Assembly (NCBI GenBank): GCA_902516285.1
Contig: CABXXT010000006.1
Span: 9,780-73,779, forward strand
Length of the DNA stretch: 64,000 nucleotides
DNA from: an uncultured SAR86 cluster bacterium
GTDB taxonomy: Bacteria; Pseudomonadota; Gammaproteobacteria; Magnimaribacterales; D2472
Reading direction: 5' to 3'
Part shown: one piece after another, positions 1,971 through 34,796 of the stretch
Position numbering within the stretch: position 1 is the first letter of the stretch
How the letters are laid out: every line of letters starts with the position of its first letter
Program-made: the position numbers and the translations under genes
The notes under the pieces: model-generated
Told to the model about the DNA's origin: nothing
Databases searched by the model: none
What the model saw: the letters and a program-made list of their open reading frames with translations, nothing else

Positions 1971-3056
1971 TTATTCAGATTCGAGTTGAGAAAGCATAGC
2001 TAACTGATTCTCAGCTAATAATGCATCACATATAATTTTTATATCACCATCCATGATTTGTTCCAGATTATGTTGAGTGAGCTTTATTCTATGATCAGTC
2101 ATTCTACCTTGAGGAAAGTTATAAGTTCTTATTTTTTCACTTCTATCACCCGTTCCTACTAAAATTTTTCTCTCGCTGGCAATATTTTCTTGTTGGGTAT
2201 CTATCTCTTGTTGTTTTAATTTTGCTACTAATAAAGATAAAGCCTTTTCTTTATTTTTATGTTGAGATCTTCCATCTTGGCACTCAACAACAATTCCTGA
2301 TGGTATATGTGTTAAACGCACTGCGGAGTCAGTTTTATTAACATGTTGTCCTCCAGCACCGGATGCTCTAAAAGTATCAACTCTTAGATCATTCTTATCG
2401 ATATTAATATCTTGAACTTCCTCAATTTCAGGTAAAACTGCAACAGTACAAGTTGAGGTATGAACCCTACCTTGAGATTCTGTTTCTGGCACTCTTTGTA
2501 CCCTATGGACACCTGACTCAAATTTTAAGACCTTAAATACACTTTTACCTACAAGTTTTGCTACAACCTCTTTAAGACCACCTTGTTCTGATGGCTTAAT
2601 ATCAATTACTTCAAGATTCCAATTTTCCCTTTCTGAAAGACGTGTATACATTCTAAACAAATCTCCAGCAAAGATGCTTGCCTCATCACCACCTGCACCT
2701 GCTCTTATTTCAAGATATGCAGACCCATCGTCAGCAGAATCTTTTGGTAATAGCATGAGTTTTAATTCTTGTTCTAATTGAAAAGGTTTGTCCAAAGCTT
2801 CTTTTAATTCATCCTCTGCTAAAGTTTTAAGGTCAGCATCTCCAGATTCGATGATTTCATTTGCATCTTCAATACGCTTGATAGTTTTATTATATTCACC
2901 AAACTTTTCTACAATTGGCTTAAGGTCTGAAAATTCTTTATTCAGCAGGGTATAATTTTCTATGTCTTTTAATGTTTCAGAATCAAGAAGTAAATTTTCT
3001 ATCTCTTTTACTCTAATTTGAAGTTGATCAAGCTTCTTCATCATTGAGTCATGCAT
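1971..3056 (-). CDS. prfA: Peptide chain release factor 1
   Basis: HRVQRVPET (PxT) and GAGGQHVN motifs; hemA-prfA-prmC order; start placed at ATG 3056. Confidence 0.97.
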   Translation of the reverse strand: MHDSMMKKLDQLQIRVKEIENLLLDSETLKDIENYTLLNKEFSDLKPIVEKFGEYNKTIKRIEDANEIIESGDADLKTLAEDELKEALDKPFQLEQELKLMLLPKDSADDGSAYLEIRAGAGGDEASIFAGDLFRMYTRLSERENWNLEVIDIKPSEQGGLKEVVAKLVGKSVFKVLKFESGVHRVQRVPETESQGRVHTSTCTVAVLPEIEEVQDINIDKNDLRVDTFRASGAGGQHVNKTDSAVRLTHIPSGIVVECQDGRSQHKNKEKALSLLVAKLKQQEIDTQQENIASERKILVGTGDRSEKIRTYNFPQGRMTDHRIKLTQHNLEQIMDGDIKIICDALLAENQLAMLSQLESE

Positions 3057-4281
3057 TATCAAAATACCTTTTGATCATAGATTCTATTACATGTTCTTCA
3101 ATACTTTTTAGGTCTTCAAAATTATTAAAGTTAGAATCTTTAATATTCATTGTTTTTATACTTTTTACTAATTCTAAAAAATTATTACTTTGTTTAAATT
3201 GTGCAATCTCTTCTTTAGATAAATTTCTTAAGAACTCGGTAAGTTGTTCATTTAGATTATCTTTTATTGTTTTATTATTTATTGATTCAAGTGCTGTTTT
3301 TGCATCTAAAACAATTATTTTCATTGCTTTATCAGCTTCAATTGATCTTTGGCCAAAATTTTCTTGAGTGATTTTTTCAATATCATCAATAGAATATAAA
3401 TAAACCTGTTCTATTTCTCTTATTTCATCTTCAATATTTCTAGGTACCCCGAGATCAATAATTAATATGGGTTTATTTGATCTTTTCTTTAATGCATTTT
3501 CTATTGCGCCTTTGCCTACTAAGGGAAGTTCTGTTATGCAAGATGCTATTAGAATATCAGAATATTCAAGTTCATCATAAAGAGTATCTAATGTTGATGA
3601 AAAGATTTCGTAGTCGTTTGAGATTTGTATTTTTTTAATTGATCTATTTACCGATTTTATATTTGTAATACCCTGTTTATATAGGTTCTGCATTAAATTA
3701 ATGCCCATATAACCCGCACCTAATACTAGTACATTTTGTTGATTTGGGTGTTCAAAAATATTACTTAATAATTTAAGAGCAAGACCGTTTATAGATAGAG
3801 AGTTTAATCCTATATCAGTCTCAGTTCTGGCTTTTTTGGAAATTTCAATAACTTTATTGGAGATTTGTAGAAGTTTGCCTTTTAAAATTTTAATATTTTT
3901 TGCATTCTTTAAAGATTGTTTAAATTGGCCAAAAATTTCTTGCTCACCTAATACTTGCGAGTCTATTCCAGATGCAACTTTACACATATGGACAAGGGCA
4001 TCATGATTATCAAGAAAGTAAAATTTATCCCTCGGAATCTCCCTTATACCAAGAACTTTAAAAACTTCTTTAAAAACTTTATTTAATATTCCAGATGCAC
4101 CATAAATGTATACTTCAGTCCTATTACAGGTTGATAGGCAAAAAAATGATTTTAATTTGTTACCAAAAATTAATTTAAAATGATTATCTAATAAAATTTG
4201 GTCAGACTCATTTATAATAAAACTTTCTCGTTCAGAAACACTAGAAGTTTTATGATTTATGCCAAATAACTGCAGTTCCAT
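3049..4281 (-). CDS. hemA: Glutamyl-tRNA reductase
   Basis: GINHKT, STCNRTE (catalytic Cys), SGIDSQVLGEQEIFGQ, IDLGVPRNIE. Confidence 0.95.
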   Translation of the reverse strand: MELQLFGINHKTSSVSERESFIINESDQILLDNHFKLIFGNKLKSFFCLSTCNRTEVYIYGASGILNKVFKEVFKVLGIREIPRDKFYFLDNHDALVHMCKVASGIDSQVLGEQEIFGQFKQSLKNAKNIKILKGKLLQISNKVIEISKKARTETDIGLNSLSINGLALKLLSNIFEHPNQQNVLVLGAGYMGINLMQNLYKQGITNIKSVNRSIKKIQISNDYEIFSSTLDTLYDELEYSDILIASCITELPLVGKGAIENALKKRSNKPILIIDLGVPRNIEDEIREIEQVYLYSIDDIEKITQENFGQRSIEADKAMKIIVLDAKTALESINNKTIKDNLNEQLTEFLRNLSKEEIAQFKQSNNFLELVKSIKTMNIKDSNFNNFEDLKSIEEHVIESMIKRYFDNA

Positions 4282-31165: not shown

Positions 31166-32074
31166 ATGAAAATTGAGGCAAAAGGGATTGCTAGCCTATC
31201 TCCTTCTGGAAATATCCTAGATGTATATTTCTTATACATAAACTTTGACAATAAAAAAGTTGGTGAAGAATCTGTCAAGGTTGACGATCAAAAAAAGAAA
31301 CTTATTGAAGTAAGCTGGGATGAATCTAATTTAAATGAGCCTGTTAAGGATATTGAAGGAGCTTATTTAAAATTACACCTAATCTCATATAAATTCGTTT
31401 TACCAAATTCTATCAATCTTGATGGAATATTTAATGTCCTACCAAATGTTGCTTGGACAAATATAGGTCCTATTGCAATTGAAGACATTGATAAAAGAAT
31501 GAATGAGTCAAAAAATTCAAACAATGATCTATATGTGCGTTCATTAGATAAATTTCCTTGCTTAACAGACTACATCATTCCCAAAAATGTTCGTATTGCA
31601 GATACATCAAGGGTTAGACTTGGAGCTTATTTAAGTGAAGGAACCACAATAATGCATGAAGGTTTTGTTAATTTCAATGCTGGAACTTTAGGAAAAGCAA
31701 TGATAGAGGGAAGAATTTCAGCGGGTGTTGTTATAGGAGATAATTCTGATTTAGGAGGTGGAGCCAGTACTATGGGAACTCTTTCTGGAGGGAACGAAGT
31801 TAAAATTTCAGTGGGAAAAAATTGTTTACTGGGTGCTAATTCGGGGTTAGGAATCCCAATTGGAGATAACTGTACTCTTGAGGCAGGCCTTTATCTTACA
31901 GCTGGAACAAAAGTTCTTATGTTAAATAAAACTTCATCGAAGGTTGTTAAAGCCTCTGAGCTTTCTGGGAGTTCAGATCTGCTTTTTTATAGAGATTCAA
32001 CAAACGGACAAGTTATTGCTAAAATGAATACCAAAGTTTCTAAACTAAATGAGGATCTTCATATAAATGATTGA
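31166..32074 (+). CDS. dapD: Tetrahydrodipicolinate N-succinyltransferase (Pseudomonas/actinobacterial type)
   Basis: YLKLHLIS, DKFP, VRIADTSRVRLGAYL, MHEGFVNFNAGT, EGRISAGV. Confidence 0.95.
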   Translation: MKIEAKGIASLSPSGNILDVYFLYINFDNKKVGEESVKVDDQKKKLIEVSWDESNLNEPVKDIEGAYLKLHLISYKFVLPNSINLDGIFNVLPNVAWTNIGPIAIEDIDKRMNESKNSNNDLYVRSLDKFPCLTDYIIPKNVRIADTSRVRLGAYLSEGTTIMHEGFVNFNAGTLGKAMIEGRISAGVVIGDNSDLGGGASTMGTLSGGNEVKISVGKNCLLGANSGLGIPIGDNCTLEAGLYLTAGTKVLMLNKTSSKVVKASELSGSSDLLFYRDSTNGQVIAKMNTKVSKLNEDLHIND

Positions 32075-33194
32075 GTTGTTACAAAATCTTGTGAAAATTG
32101 AATCCATATCACCAAAGGATATGGGGTGCTTTGATATTATTGAGAATGAGTTAACGGATCTCAATTTTAATTGTGAAAGAATTAATTATTTAAATGTTGA
32201 AAACCTATATGCCACTATTGGAACTAAAGGAAAATTGTTTTGTTTTTTAGGTCATACTGACGTTGTTCCAACTGGTCCGGAAGAGAATTGGAAATATCCA
32301 CCCTTCTCAGCTCAAATTGACGGTGACATAATGTATGGACGAGGAACTGCAGATATGAAGGCATCTATTGCAGCTTTTGTAGAATCAGTAAAAGAATTTT
32401 TAGCTCAAACTCAAGAATTAAATTTTAGATTAGCCATCTTGCTAACATCTAACGAAGAGGGAAGTTCACATGACGGTTTTATAGACAAGATTGTTGAAAA
32501 AATGATGGATAATGACGAGCTTATTGACTATTGTTTAGTGGGTGAACCAACTTCTAATAAAAAAGTTGCTGATAGCGCAAGAATAGGCAGAAGAGGTTCT
32601 TTAGGTGGTCATTTACAAATATTTGGCAAACAAGGACATGTTGCATACCCTGAAAATGTTGAGAATCCGATCTTTTTATCTAGTGATTTAATTACAGATC
32701 TTAAAAATAAAAAATGGGACAATGGAAATGCGATATTTGATCCAACAAGTTTTCAAATATCAAATATTCACTCTGGTACTGGAGCGCACAACGTTGTTCC
32801 AGGAGAATTAGATCTCTATTTTAATTTTAGGTATTCAACTGAATCTACAGAAGAAAGCCTCAAATCTGAATTTGAAAATATTATTAAAAATCTTAATTTA
32901 AAATATGACCTTAAATGGAATTTAAATGGAAATCCTTATCTTACTGAAAATAAATTTCTTAAAGAAATAATTGTAAGTGCATGTGAAGAAGTAAATGGTT
33001 ACAAGCCCGATTTAAATGCTAAAGGCGGCACGTCTGATGGTAGGTTTATTGCAAAGATGAAGACTGAAATTATTGAGTTAGGACCAATAAACGAATCAAT
33101 TCATCAAATTGATGAAAATATTAAGATTAGCGAACTTTGGATACTTAAGGATATTTATACAAAAGTTTTATTTAAGCTTAATCAACATCTTTAA
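32067..33194 (+). CDS. dapE: Succinyl-diaminopimelate desuccinylase
   Basis: GHTDVVP, GRGTADMK, VGEPT, GRRGSL, QGHVAYP, GGTSDGRF, IHQIDE. Confidence 0.96.
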   Translation: MIELLQNLVKIESISPKDMGCFDIIENELTDLNFNCERINYLNVENLYATIGTKGKLFCFLGHTDVVPTGPEENWKYPPFSAQIDGDIMYGRGTADMKASIAAFVESVKEFLAQTQELNFRLAILLTSNEEGSSHDGFIDKIVEKMMDNDELIDYCLVGEPTSNKKVADSARIGRRGSLGGHLQIFGKQGHVAYPENVENPIFLSSDLITDLKNKKWDNGNAIFDPTSFQISNIHSGTGAHNVVPGELDLYFNFRYSTESTEESLKSEFENIIKNLNLKYDLKWNLNGNPYLTENKFLKEIIVSACEEVNGYKPDLNAKGGTSDGRFIAKMKTEIIELGPINESIHQIDENIKISELWILKDIYTKVLFKLNQHL

Positions 33195-33303
33195 TTTTTT
33201 TCTTTCTAGTATATTTTGTTTTATCTCTGTGAGTTTTAGGCTTATGGAATTTGTCCATATTTTTTTTTACAGGATTTTTTTTGCTTATTTTTCTCAACTT
33301 CAA
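33178..33303 (-). CDS. Unannotated 41-aa basic small protein, ArfA-like
   Basis: Hand-translated from TTG: MKLRKISKKNPVKKNMDKFHKPKTHRDKTKYTRKKKIKDVD*; fills the dapE-POT gap, starts 8 nt after the POT stop and overlaps the dapE 3' end by 17 nt. Confidence 0.7.
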   Translation of the reverse strand: MKLRKISKKNPVKKNMDKFHKPKTHRDKTKYTRKKKIKDVD

Positions 33304-33311
33304 AATCTATT

Positions 33312-34796
33312 TTATCTAGGTATGGCCTCTGTTTCTTTTTTACTTTTTAATAAGAATGAAAGGCCAACTAAAATAATTCCGATAACTAGATAGTATTGAA
33401 TCATAAAAGTGAATATCGGCTGAACGGAGTCCAAGCCATCAGAAGTTGCATCGCCTCCAAGCAATCCAGCTAAAACTCCGCCTATTGCAGAAGCTAAAAA
33501 CCATAATCCGAACATCTGGCCGATATATCTTTTTGGAGAATATTTTGAAAATGCTGAAAGTCCAATTGGTGACAAGGCAAGCTCACCCCAAGTTTGGAGT
33601 AAGTATGTGATTAAAAGCCATTGCATACCTACGGGGGCAGATTCCATAGCCAATCCAACTGCAAAGACCATAACCATAAAACTTATAGCCATAAAAAATA
33701 AACCTATAGCAAACTTTATTGGCAAAGATGGATCCATGTTTCTTCTTGCTAAATTAGCCCATATGCCAGCAAAAATTGGTGCAAAAGTTACAACAAATAT
33801 GGGATTTGCAAACTGCAACCATCCAATTGGTATGATGTAACCTGCAACAGACAAGTCAGTAAAATCTCTTGCAAAAATACTTAATGAACTCGCTGACTGA
33901 TCAAAACCAGACCAAAAAGCAGCAGCTCCTACAAATAGAACAAATAATAATAATAGGTTACGTTTTTCATTAAAATCCAATCCTGCAAAAAAATATAAAT
34001 ATAAAAAGTATATTCCTGCCACTATTGTTAAAAAATATGCAAAATTTTCAGCAAAAGTTCTTGGATCGATAGAAATGATGCCAAATAATCCTAATGCAAT
34101 AACTATGAACATTAAAGCTAGACTATTTTTTGTCCATTTGATTAGCTTATTTCTTTTAATATCCTCCATATCATTGGGCTTTTCACCTGCATCGCCTAAC
34201 AAATGCTTGAACTTTAGATATTGATATACTCCTAATACCATTCCGACCCCTGCAGCACCAAACCCATAATGCCAACCTATTTTTTCACCCAACCAGGCAC
34301 AAATTAAGAATCCAAGAGTTGATCCAATATTTATGGACATATAAAAAATTGTGTAGCCAGAATCTCTTCTTGTATCATCATCAGAATATAACTTCCCAAC
34401 AATTGTTGATATATTTCCTTTGAGCAATCCAGTACCTAAAACTACTAAAATTAAACCAAGAAAAAAAGTTTGCTCAAGAGGTATTGCAAGAGTGAAGTGA
34501 CCTAACGCAATAATTATCGCTCCAATTAATACTGCTTTTTGATGTCCTAAAATATTATCAGCAATCCAACCACCAGGTACGACCATAAAATAAACAAAAC
34601 CAACATAAATACCATATATTGCATTTGCATCTATTGCTGACATTCCCATTCCAGGGTTAAATCCAGTGATGGAGCCAGTCATATATAAAACCAATAAGGC
34701 TCTCATGCCATAGTAAGACATCCTCTCCCACATCTCTGTTAAGAACAATGTTCTTAGACCGATAGGATGCCCAAAGAAACTTTTATCTGTATTCAT
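33312..34796 (-). CDS. Proton-dependent oligopeptide (POT/PTR2) MFS transporter
   Basis: FFGHP, ExxERxSYYG (EMWERMSYYG), GGWIAD, FYMSINIGS, GELALSPIGLS. Confidence 0.93.
   Translation of the reverse strand: MNTDKSFFGHPIGLRTLFLTEMWERMSYYGMRALLVLYMTGSITGFNPGMGMSAIDANAIYGIYVGFVYFMVVPGGWIADNILGHQKAVLIGAIIIALGHFTLAIPLEQTFFLGLILVVLGTGLLKGNISTIVGKLYSDDDTRRDSGYTIFYMSINIGSTLGFLICAWLGEKIGWHYGFGAAGVGMVLGVYQYLKFKHLLGDAGEKPNDMEDIKRNKLIKWTKNSLALMFIVIALGLFGIISIDPRTFAENFAYFLTIVAGIYFLYLYFFAGLDFNEKRNLLLLFVLFVGAAAFWSGFDQSASSLSIFARDFTDLSVAGYIIPIGWLQFANPIFVVTFAPIFAGIWANLARRNMDPSLPIKFAIGLFFMAISFMVMVFAVGLAMESAPVGMQWLLITYLLQTWGELALSPIGLSAFSKYSPKRYIGQMFGLWFLASAIGGVLAGLLGGDATSDGLDSVQPIFTFMIQYYLVIGIILVGLSFLLKSKKETEAIPR

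Follow-up and report, generated by a model that had tools for sequence, protein, structure and literature searches.

The window, the whole stretch of 64,000 nucleotides of DNA that was analysed, carries a small gene for a very basic peptide between a POT-family symporter gene and a dapE gene (Table 1). The two neighbours were identified by matches to Pfam PTR2 (212 bits) and NCBIfam TIGR00924 (400.5 bits) for the POT gene, and to NCBIfam NF009557 (478 bits) for dapE. The minus-strand frame had been picked out in a sequence-only reading of this DNA, and our translation is identical to the one given there, with the first residue being a methionine read from TTG. The gap of 8 nt between the POT stop codon and this TTG is confirmed, and the A8 and A9 runs noted in that reading are both present and in frame. 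The 3' end of dapE covers the last 17 nt of the small gene. A hand count from the translation gives 15 lysines and 3 arginines against 4 aspartates.

Table 1. Features at the small-gene locus (window coordinates)
Feature	Position	Strand	Remarks
dapE (succinyl-diaminopimelate desuccinylase)	32067..33194	plus	convergent with the small gene
Shadow ORF	33109..33393	plus	94 aa
Small gene	33178..33303, stop codon included	minus	41 codons, TTG start, basic DUF7230 peptide
Probable TTG start codon	33301..33303	minus	second in-frame TTG at 33295..33297
POT-family oligopeptide:H+ symporter gene	33312..34796	minus	upstream, same strand as the small gene

An in-frame TAG is found two codons upstream, so that an ATT and two TTG codons are the only possible starts. 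An internal ATG, which would give a 26-aa product, was considered as the start and rejected, because the residues that precede it, N-P-V-K-K-N, are conserved as protein. A TTG start located 4–14 nt past the POT stop is seen at 4 of the 22 loci of the genus, the window included, and an ATG start overlapping the POT end by 14 nt at 18 of 22; it should be mentioned that one ATG-start locus, in which an ambiguous base is present, overlaps the POT gene by 35 nt. The 8-nt gap shows no promoter-like site on the minus strand, and the small gene is probably co-transcribed with the POT gene. One contig from an RNA library spans the POT end and the start of the ORF, which indicates presence only. RNA-library contigs from three studies cover the ORF partially, some of them coming from a relative whose N-terminus is of the ATG type; these contigs are uninformative on transcription, strand and ends, and the parts of the ORF that they leave uncovered carry no weight.

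The small gene is real and strongly conserved. Among 24 congeneric genomes other than the window's own, 23 have an open frame of 39–44 codons, and the slot between POT and dapE is occupied at all 22 same-genus loci, with the order and strand of the POT gene and the small gene kept and with a convergent dapE overlap of 17–23 nt at every one of them. Over 35 aligned codons, the variable columns at codon positions 1, 2 and 3 number 9, 13 and 33, and the median pairwise dN/dS is 0.081 at a median dS of 1.04 (21 sequences; 183 usable pairs out of 209). The database search returned 102 homologs of the ORF, many of which have the N-P-V...F...D-K...Y-x-R-K pattern in common. Lack of conservation at this locus in relatives, lack of purifying selection or lack of homologs sharing that pattern would, by its own terms, have refuted the sequence-only reading; none of these outcomes occurred. 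A chance open frame in an AT-rich, A-run-rich spacer, to which the genome GC of ~31%, an antisense frame open in 21 of 21 relatives and a TTG start with no obvious Shine-Dalgarno sequence could be thought to point, is refuted by these conservation data and by a Pfam score over the cut-off (see below), as far as computation can refute it.

It is also very improbable that the ORF serves in the regulation or coupling of the POT operon, for instance as an attenuator-type peptide or a translated 3' leader, and that its product is functionless. The start of the ORF directly past the POT stop, or overlapping the POT end in most congeners, would suit an element of this kind, as would the lack of a promoter-like site of its own. 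However, selection has acted on the amino-acid sequence, and in other lineages the peptide family has unrelated neighbours, being located beside mnmG or rdgC, past tatC, or between a dsbA-like and a PALP gene. At several loci of the long forms described below there is no same-strand gene downstream. As a clue to function, the gene neighbourhood gave no partner conserved across lineages.

The peptide is a member of Pfam PF23876 (DUF7230). The match scores 33.1 bits against a gathering cut-off of 27 (E 6.3e-8), with residues 7–38 aligned to model positions 2–33 of 42, and a six-frame search of the genome gives 31.9 bits for the same family. All 34 aligned relatives also match PF23876. The sequence-only reading, which had suggested an HMM search, was unaware that the family is already present in Pfam, where it stands without a described function; the search did return a small DUF family, but not Pfam ArfA. 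A full-text literature search for 'DUF7230' found no paper. At E ≤ 10 no other Pfam family matches the window peptide, and searches of PDB sequences with the DUF7230 alignment and with two individual members (L017 and L048) yielded nothing; NCBIfam shows no match for the peptide or for three long forms. Look-alikes of the peptide in the ESM Atlas belong to unnamed clusters only (0.90–0.91). With its 41 aa the window copy belongs to the short forms of DUF7230, whereas the long forms, found in Methylococcales and others, have 52–76 aa; three of the long forms (L079, L082 and L083) come from records of cultured Methylotuvimicrobium/Methylomicrobium strains. It is noted that one row (L070) of the 34-row DUF7230 alignment was trimmed at the wrong end, and that this alignment was used for hhalign, the Pfam ArfA search, the PDB search and complex prediction; the corrected L070 ORF was used in the cross-family BLASTP and in the hairpin counts.

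Every bacterium must release ribosomes stuck on mRNAs that have no stop codon. To our knowledge, the known back-up rescue factors are few, namely ArfA, ArfB, ArfT and BrfA, and the peptide had been called ArfA-like in the sequence-only reading. ArfA is an RF2-dependent factor of Gamma- and Betaproteobacteria that recruits RF2 to nonstop ribosomes and whose loss is synthetically lethal with that of ssrA. Both are small and very basic peptides whose motifs are collinear: an asparagine close to the N-terminus, an aromatic residue within a basic stretch, and then K-K...Y-x-R-K-x-K(H). ArfA occurs in the same bacterial class as DUF7230. The window peptide is nevertheless not a member of Pfam ArfA (PF03889), for which neither the peptide nor any of the 34 DUF7230 members gives a match at E ≤ 10. 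In BLASTP against 20 ArfA sequences the best score is 13.5 bits, the shuffled median being 13.1, and an ArfA-core HMM built here scores 2.4 bits on the peptide. When the DUF7230 and ArfA alignments are compared by hhalign, D-K-T-K-Y-x-R-K is paired with K-G-K-G-S-Y-x-R-K over 16 columns, at a probability of only 0.74% (E 0.076), which is not significant; with trimmed cores the probability is 2.2%. K-G-K-G is invariant in 20 of the 20 ArfA sequences aligned, and a passage of PMC6299226 describes a conserved K-G-K-G-S motif in the ArfA tail that enters the mRNA channel. This motif is absent from the window peptide, which has D-K-T-K-Y at the corresponding place.

As the window peptide has no significant direct similarity to ArfA, the link between them has to be made in several moderate steps. 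The order of the window includes a genus (g4) in which two genomes, G036 and G027, carry a small gene after tatC; their TatC proteins are 53% identical. The two small proteins match each other with an E value of 2e-6. The best Pfam match of the G036 protein is DUF7230 (26.4 bits), while that of the G027 protein is ArfA, at 15.1 bits and E 0.016 among 24,736 families; this score is below the cut-off of 25.5, and the match covers model positions 10–43 of 44. Aligned with a bona fide ArfA (L044, 39 bits on PF03889), the G027 protein is 47% identical over 30 residues and scores 25.4 bits, where none of 300 shuffles exceeds 20.0 bits. The single gap in this alignment, of 3 residues, lies exactly at GKG, in keeping with the earlier description of the peptide as an ArfA pattern without the GKGS insert.

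The same connection was looked at with larger sets. An HMM of seven bridging proteins exceeds the 99th percentile of shuffles for 27 of 34 core DUF7230 members and for 14 of 20 ArfA sequences; on the window peptide its score is only 5.6 bits, the 99th percentile being 5.0. The DUF7230 cut-off of 27 bits is narrowly missed by two bridging proteins (26.4 and 26.7 bits). Cross-family BLASTP gives 53 of 720 DUF7230-ArfA pairs at 18 bits or more, compared with a mean of 2.95 pairs for shuffled and 9 for reversed ArfA, where both nulls mimic lysine-rich low-complexity sequence imperfectly and the family members are not independent. As judged by sequence comparison, the bridging group in the window's order joins DUF7230 to ArfA above the nulls. 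The term ArfA-like is thus supported in part: it agrees with what is seen at the level of the family, but not with any significant direct similarity of the window peptide itself.

A further resemblance lies in the layout of the long-form genes. Each of the 14 long-form DUF7230 genes, which represent about six or seven lineages, has a hairpin with an energy of -24 to -50 kcal/mol, beginning 4–14 codons past the conserved tyrosine. The stop codon is 3' of the hairpin in 9 of them, within it in 5 and before it in none. A hairpin at least as strong as -22 kcal/mol is found in 18 of 20 ArfA controls, and in 19 of the 20 the stop codon comes after or within the hairpin. The long-form hairpin covaries, with 16 of 20 pairs changed on both sides and 94.5% of cells paired, against 70.1% when shuffled (0 of 500 shuffles reach 94.5%); the covariation score of 0.722 compares with 0.234 for shuffled sequences and at most 0.134 with slid partners. 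The tails encoded past the hairpin are often hydrophobic and variable, so much so that their sequence and even their frame differ between close relatives. By eye, a U-tract after the hairpin is absent in most long forms. Searches of Rfam with four long-form loci returned only a chance-level match of one hairpin to a plant miRNA (27.4 bits, where the gathering score is 90). According to a passage in PMC3989581, arfA is regulated by an RNase III stem-loop in the 3' part of its ORF, which leads to a nonstop mRNA and tmRNA tagging, and the hydrophobic C-terminus of ArfA is unstable and dispensable. The hairpin and tail of the long-form DUF7230 genes constitute this arfA nonstop-mRNA layout.

Unlike ArfA and the long forms, the window copy has neither an in-ORF hairpin nor a hydrophobic tail, and ends in a normal stop codon, which falls where the long-form hairpin begins. 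The best hairpin after its tyrosine, of -5.6 kcal/mol, is located past the stop codon, so the gene does not have the features of one read from a nonstop mRNA; no strong RNA structure was found in the window copy (fold z = 0.09), and Rfam has no match in the window region. The earlier remark that the peptide is free of the hydrophobic tail agrees with the comparison to the long-form relatives, which possess both the arfA-type hairpin and the tail that the window copy lacks.

We have also compared the peptide with the other rescue factors. ArfT of Francisella tularensis is of nearly the same size (40 aa, against 41 aa here), and both have a basic tail; in the part of PMC6299226 that deals with it, ArfT was found as an unannotated small ORF without ArfA-type RNase III regulation, two traits shared with the window gene, and recruits RF1 or RF2. 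Its tail motif K-K-G-G-S-T-N-K-K (PMC6299226, same part) is absent from the window peptide, for which DUF7230 is the only Pfam family at E ≤ 10, and the peptide is thus not placed in the ArfT or KGG-repeat family. That family is described by Burroughs and Aravind, in a passage of PMC6514570, as broadly distributed, with 1–8 copies of a charged alpha-helix. ArfB, recognized by NF006718 and a GGQ-bearing RF-1 domain with a basic tail, does not correspond to the peptide, which has no RF-1 domain. The RF2-dependent BrfA of Bacillus subtilis resembles the long-form DUF7230 genes in having an RNA element in its ORF, nonstop mRNA and tmRNA control, being regulated like ArfA as far as a passage in PMC11633108 describes it; BrfA belongs to a different phylum, and the likeness is one of regulatory principle. 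A predicted complex of the peptide with RF2 of the genome (an RF2 alignment of 25 rows) scored 0.00 and 0.01, the mark being 0.32, and was counted neither way.

The genome of the window encodes tmRNA, SmpB, RF1 and RF2. In this assembly, which is 81% complete, no match to ArfA was seen at E ≤ 10 and ArfB was not found, the only two RF-1-domain genes being prfA and prfB with no third one present. Nine of 10 DUF7230-bearing genomes checked likewise have only two RF-1-domain genes. In the samples searched, DUF7230 is confined to the class of ArfA, with 3 of 301 members of a phylum sample having it, all from this class. The two families occur together in 0 genomes, where only ~0.14 of 400 would be expected, and ArfB is carried by 1 of 9 DUF7230 genomes (1 of 7 by genus) against 191 of 400 overall, a comparison weakened by the fact that small genomes often have no ArfB anyway; these co-occurrence counts are too small to decide the matter. 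Exclusion between ArfA and ArfB is not to be expected, since 4 of 6 ArfA genomes carry ArfB. A back-up factor is not obligatory in the order, because five relatives without DUF7230 have neither ArfA nor ArfB.

Considering the sequence bridge to ArfA and the arfA-type layout of the long forms, we propose, with a probability of about 50%, that the window copy is a constitutively made, GKG-less, ArfA-like putative rescue factor. DUF7230 would then be a remote ArfA-type branch acting in release-factor-dependent rescue without the GKG(S) loop. The N-terminal half (N-P-V...K-F) may keep a class I release factor, RF2 and possibly RF1, in its active shape, and the release factor so held would hydrolyse peptidyl-tRNA in the absence of a stop codon. 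The long forms are apparently made, as ArfA is, from mRNA that is cut or terminated at the in-ORF hairpin, and would therefore be held low by tmRNA. Since the window copy is tailless and ends at the point where that hairpin would begin, constitutive synthesis is proposed for it. For the peptide itself we infer ribosome binding, recruitment of a release factor, rescue activity and constitutive expression.

The chief competing explanation, to which we give a smaller but still substantial chance, is that this small basic protein acts on the ribosome or on RNA for another purpose, with no recruitment of a release factor. Candidate roles would be those of an RNA chaperone or of a peptide of the accessory ribosomal or hibernation type, the likeness to ArfA reflecting convergent lysine-rich composition. 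The hairpin of the long forms would then act in stability or termination, or would switch a different stress factor in a tmRNA-dependent manner. The gene is constrained, yet its direct homology to ArfA is below significance, the KGKGS motif is absent, the short forms do not bear the nonstop-mRNA signature, and the need for a back-up is not obvious when close relatives do without DUF7230, ArfA and ArfB alike. This explanation is less at ease with a covarying hairpin that lies within the ORF or across its stop codon in all of the long forms and precedes a tail that is not conserved, an unusual layout known, in the passages of PMC3989581 and PMC11633108 that bear on it, for the release-factor-dependent ArfA and BrfA. 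Nor does it account readily for a bridging ortholog whose top Pfam match is ArfA, collinear over the whole core.

If the window copy is a GKG-less rescue factor as proposed, a wider and more tentative reading of the sequence data is that DUF7230 may represent an unrecognised GKG-less ArfA-type lineage, in which the short forms have dropped the nonstop-mRNA/tmRNA loop that the long forms kept. On the same reading, the family would be spread in Methylococcales and in several uncultured marine gammaproteobacterial groups that surveys have scored as ArfA-negative; in a recent survey of more than 15,000 genomes, as a passage of PMC11633108 gives it, ArfA is limited to Gammaproteobacteria, some Betaproteobacteria and the B. 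subtilis group. The short forms of streamlined marine genomes, the window copy among them, would be the smallest known constitutive rescue peptides that recruit a release factor, possibly with a relaxed preference between RF1 and RF2. A role would be assigned to a domain of unknown function, and the series of long regulated forms, short unregulated forms and GKG-containing ArfA would reveal which parts of ArfA are dispensable. Lineages at present counted as relying on tmRNA only, including abundant streamlined marine bacteria and model methanotrophs, would thereby gain a back-up pathway.

The minus-strand frame between the POT-family transporter gene and dapE was re-read from the sequence and found as the sequence-only reading had described it, with the A8 and A9 runs both in frame. 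Its TTG start lies 8 nt downstream of the POT stop, an in-frame TAG two codons 5' of the TTG marks the boundary of the frame, and the convergent dapE overlaps the final 17 nt. The GC content of the window is ~30-34%. Terminator-like and promoter-like sites were looked for in the flanks of the gene on its own strand, and none was found.

Features at the small-gene locus, with the RF1 gene of the same window
Feature	Coordinates	Strand	Basis
Small gene, 41 codons, TTG start	33178..33303	-	ORF and translation
POT-family gene, oligopeptide:H+ symporter	33312..34796	-	NCBIfam, 400.5 bits
dapE, succinyl-diaminopimelate desuccinylase	32067..33194	+	NCBIfam, 478 bits
"Shadow" ORF, 94 aa, antisense to the small gene	33109..33393	+	Open frame
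prfA (RF1), ~30 kb from the small gene	1971..3062	-	NCBIfam NF001859, 495 bits

The small gene is almost certainly real. Its peptide matches PF23876 (DUF7230) in Pfam (hmmscan), scoring 33.1 bits where the gathering score is 27, and has no match in NCBIfam. Searching relatives with the DUF7230 model revealed the gene, once per genome, in 33 of 41 genomes including the window's own; the family is present in 23 of the 24 other genomes of the genus, and in 2/6, 5/5 and 2/5 genomes of the order's other families. The gene follows POT on the same strand at each of the 22 loci fetched from the genus, and the converging dapE overlaps it by 17-23 nt. The start is an ATG overlapping the end of POT in 18 loci and a TTG 4-14 nt past the POT stop in four, the window among them. 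Over 35 aligned codons from 21 distinct sequences, 9, 13 and 33 columns vary at codon positions 1, 2 and 3, and the median pairwise dN/dS is 0.081 at a median dS of 1.04 (183 usable of 209 pairs). Retention of the ORF at this locus and purifying selection on it, which the sequence-only reading had left to be checked in relatives, are thus both borne out.

Parts of the small ORF are covered by RNA-library contigs from three studies, a record of presence only. Two of these contigs (runs X1 and X4) match the ORF to 33280 and then switch to the ATG-type N-terminus of most congeners; the seawater samples concerned therefore contain sister strains that have the other start type. It is noted that the shadow ORF is open in all 21 relatives across the shared stretch, which is no evidence for a gene because AAA-rich lysine codons give TTT on the opposite strand.

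Among 5.8 billion proteins searched, 102 of 104 candidates were homologs at E ≤ 0.001, each unnamed or "hypothetical" and many labelled PF23876. Among the 50%-identity representatives, 70 clusters matched, with no E-value below 1e-10, as expected for 41 residues. Named records place the relatives in metagenome-assembled genomes (MAGs) of marine Gammaproteobacteria and in Methylococcales, including, among the latter, cultured strains of Methylotuvimicrobium and Methylomicrobium as well as MAGs labelled Methylomonas and Methylocaldum. With even sampling, 9 of 400 genomes of the class carried DUF7230, as did 3 of 301 of the phylum, all three belonging to the same class. Records titled Terriglobia, Opitutia and Bacteroidetes (L073, L084, L095) carry copies much like the marine gammaproteobacterial gene, lie on contigs of about 6 kb, and include one identical to another fetched sequence (L095 to L094); they are probably binning errors rather than cross-phylum transfers. 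The neighbourhoods vary by lineage (POT/dapE, dsbA-like/PALP, DUF3604/steroid dehydrogenase, tatC, mnmG/dksA-like, rdgC), and DUF7230 is a stand-alone gene.

The sequence-only reading had proposed a resemblance to ArfA and, as a possibility, a minimal rescue or ribosome-binding factor. Direct comparison places the product in DUF7230 and not in Pfam ArfA (PF03889). None of 34 DUF7230 members matched the Pfam ArfA model at E ≤ 10, and the HMM-HMM comparison failed to join the families: hhalign of the 34 DUF7230 against 20 ArfA sequences gave a probability of 0.74% (E 0.076), with an alignment limited to D-K-T-K-Y-x-R-K opposite K-G-K-G-S-Y-x-R-K, and trimmed cores gave 2.2%. The window's peptide scored no better than shuffles against the ArfA sequences.

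Bridging proteins from the window's order point to a probable remote homology between the two families. In genus g4, a small gene directly follows tatC in two genomes, G036 and G027, whose TatC proteins are 53% identical and whose small proteins (L017 and L132, respectively) match each other at E 2e-6. The top Pfam match of the G036 protein is DUF7230, at 26.4 bits slightly below the cut-off, and its database relatives are labelled PF23876.2. For the G027 protein, the top match over all Pfam is ArfA (15.1 bits, E 0.016, model positions 10-43 of 44). It is 47% identical over 30 residues (BLASTP) to a bona fide ArfA, L044 (39 bits on PF03889), with one gap only, of 3 residues, exactly at the G-K-G of ArfA; the score is 25.4 bits against 20.0 for the best of 300 shuffles, each compared with all 20 ArfA sequences. 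With an HMM built from seven bridging proteins, 27 of the 34 core DUF7230 sequences exceeded the 99th percentile of shuffles (top 19.8; shuffle maximum 10.7; reversed maximum 2.3), as did 14 of 20 ArfA sequences (top scores 23.6, 14.4 and 11.9; shuffle maximum 8.6; reversed maximum 11.0); the window's peptide reached 5.6, where the 99th percentile was 5.0. In BLASTP of 720 non-independent DUF7230-ArfA pairs, 53 reached at least 18 bits and 21 at least 20 bits, compared with means of 2.95 and 0.90 for shuffled ArfA and counts of 9 and 3 for reversed ArfA, nulls that are imperfect for lysine-rich sequence. The most fitting description of DUF7230 is ArfA-like, lacking the GKG(S) loop; the pattern that the sequence-only reading had seen in the window's peptide finds support through the G027 protein, but not in that peptide's own comparison with ArfA. 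A borderline DUF7230 protein, L053 from genome G358 (26.7 bits), carries an ArfA-like T-P-R-F-R-P-R stretch.

DUF7230 genes occur as short forms of 36-55 aa, which stop ~10 codons past the conserved Y-x-R-K, and long forms of 52-76 aa with a variable, often hydrophobic C-terminal tail. In each of the 14 long forms examined there is a hairpin, ranging from -24 to -50 kcal/mol and starting 4-14 (mostly 7-9) codons past the conserved Y; the stop codon is 3' of the hairpin in nine, within its 3' arm in five and before it in none. With the same script, 20 ArfA control genes from the genomes searched with the Pfam model showed a hairpin at least as strong as -22 kcal/mol in 18, and a stop after or inside the hairpin in 19. 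The consensus long-form hairpin has 20 pairs, 16 of which are changed on both sides among 12 sequences. Its cells are paired in 94.5% of cases versus 70.1% after column shuffling (none of 500 shuffles as high), and the covariation score is 0.722 versus 0.234 shuffled and ≤0.134 with partners slid. In two congeneric genomes the stem is kept by compensatory changes, yet the tail is encoded in different frames. Most hairpins, judged by eye, have no U-run after them and thus do not resemble ordinary intrinsic terminators in appearance. This layout is the one published for arfA, in which RNase III cleavage or transcription stop at a stem-loop in the 3' ORF yields a nonstop mRNA under tmRNA control, the full-length protein being destabilised by its hydrophobic C-terminus (PMC3989581); regulation of BrfA follows that principle too (PMC11633108). 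Two more variants, L134 (genome G745) and L133 (genome G640), were seen: a 66-aa protein that ends in a long acidic tail and contains S-P-A-F-R, a stretch resembling ArfA, and a 76-aa protein whose tail is hydrophobic and whose gene has a modest hairpin only (-20 kcal/mol).

The window carries a short form, with an mRNA region that is unstructured (z = 0.09). The strongest hairpin past the Y is -5.6 kcal/mol and located 3' of the stop. The ORF closes with an ordinary TAA that follows an acidic K-D-V-D, and the hydrophobic tail is absent, as the sequence-only reading had it.

Genes for tmRNA (178.6 bits), SmpB, RF1 and RF2 are present in the window's genome. In its assembly (1.08 Mb, 30 contigs, 81% complete), no Pfam ArfA match at E ≤ 10 and no third RF-1-domain gene (possible ArfB) were found; four congeners, 91-97% complete, have two RF-1-domain genes each, as do 9 of 10 DUF7230-bearing genomes checked. 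Of the 400 genomes in the class sample, 191 had ArfB over cut-off (187 of 396 without G077, G154, G298 and G308, flagged unpublished); so did 4 of 6 ArfA genomes and 1 of 9 DUF7230 genomes (G358; by genus 1 of 7). A rough binomial for 1/9 at 48% gives 0.03, or 0.08 by genus, without phylogenetic correction, so this scarcity is only a hint. ArfA and DUF7230 were never found together (6 and 9 of 400 genomes; 17 and 1 of 61), with an expected overlap well under one. Five DUF7230-less relatives in the order showed no ArfB and no over-cut-off ArfA match. The prfB gene was compared between the window's genome (L102, G000:C7:6623-7717) and its relatives (loci L103-L131). In the window's genome and 21 congeners fetched, it is one unbroken 365-codon ORF; in the order's other families the match begins only at residue 18-34 or has stops. 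This suggests that the usual programmed +1 frameshift of prfB was lost in the window's genus.

In the literature searched (subscription journals outside scope), there was no sign of DUF7230 by name, of DUF7230 as an ArfA-like rescue factor, or of "alternative ribosome rescue" together with SAR86; "ArfA-like" appeared only in the ArfT paper, and KGKGS in a rescue context, by title, only in that paper and one review.

An ArfA-like rescue function is the best-supported explanation for the small gene, with a probability of about one half, because of the family-level hairpin architecture and the sequence bridge and not the window's own sequence. ArfA contacts RF2 through residues 15-31, where an aromatic residue occupies a pocket of RF2, and its K-G-K-G-S tail sits in the channel (PMC6299226); DUF7230 retains an aromatic residue (K-F) followed by the Y-x-R-K tail, in the same order. 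On a ribosome stalled at the mRNA 3' end, the basic tail would fill the empty mRNA channel, and the N-terminal half would place a class I release factor so that hydrolysis can proceed independently of a stop codon. If DUF7230 acts like ArfA, the window's copy would be equivalent to the processed, active part alone, made constitutively with the POT transcript.
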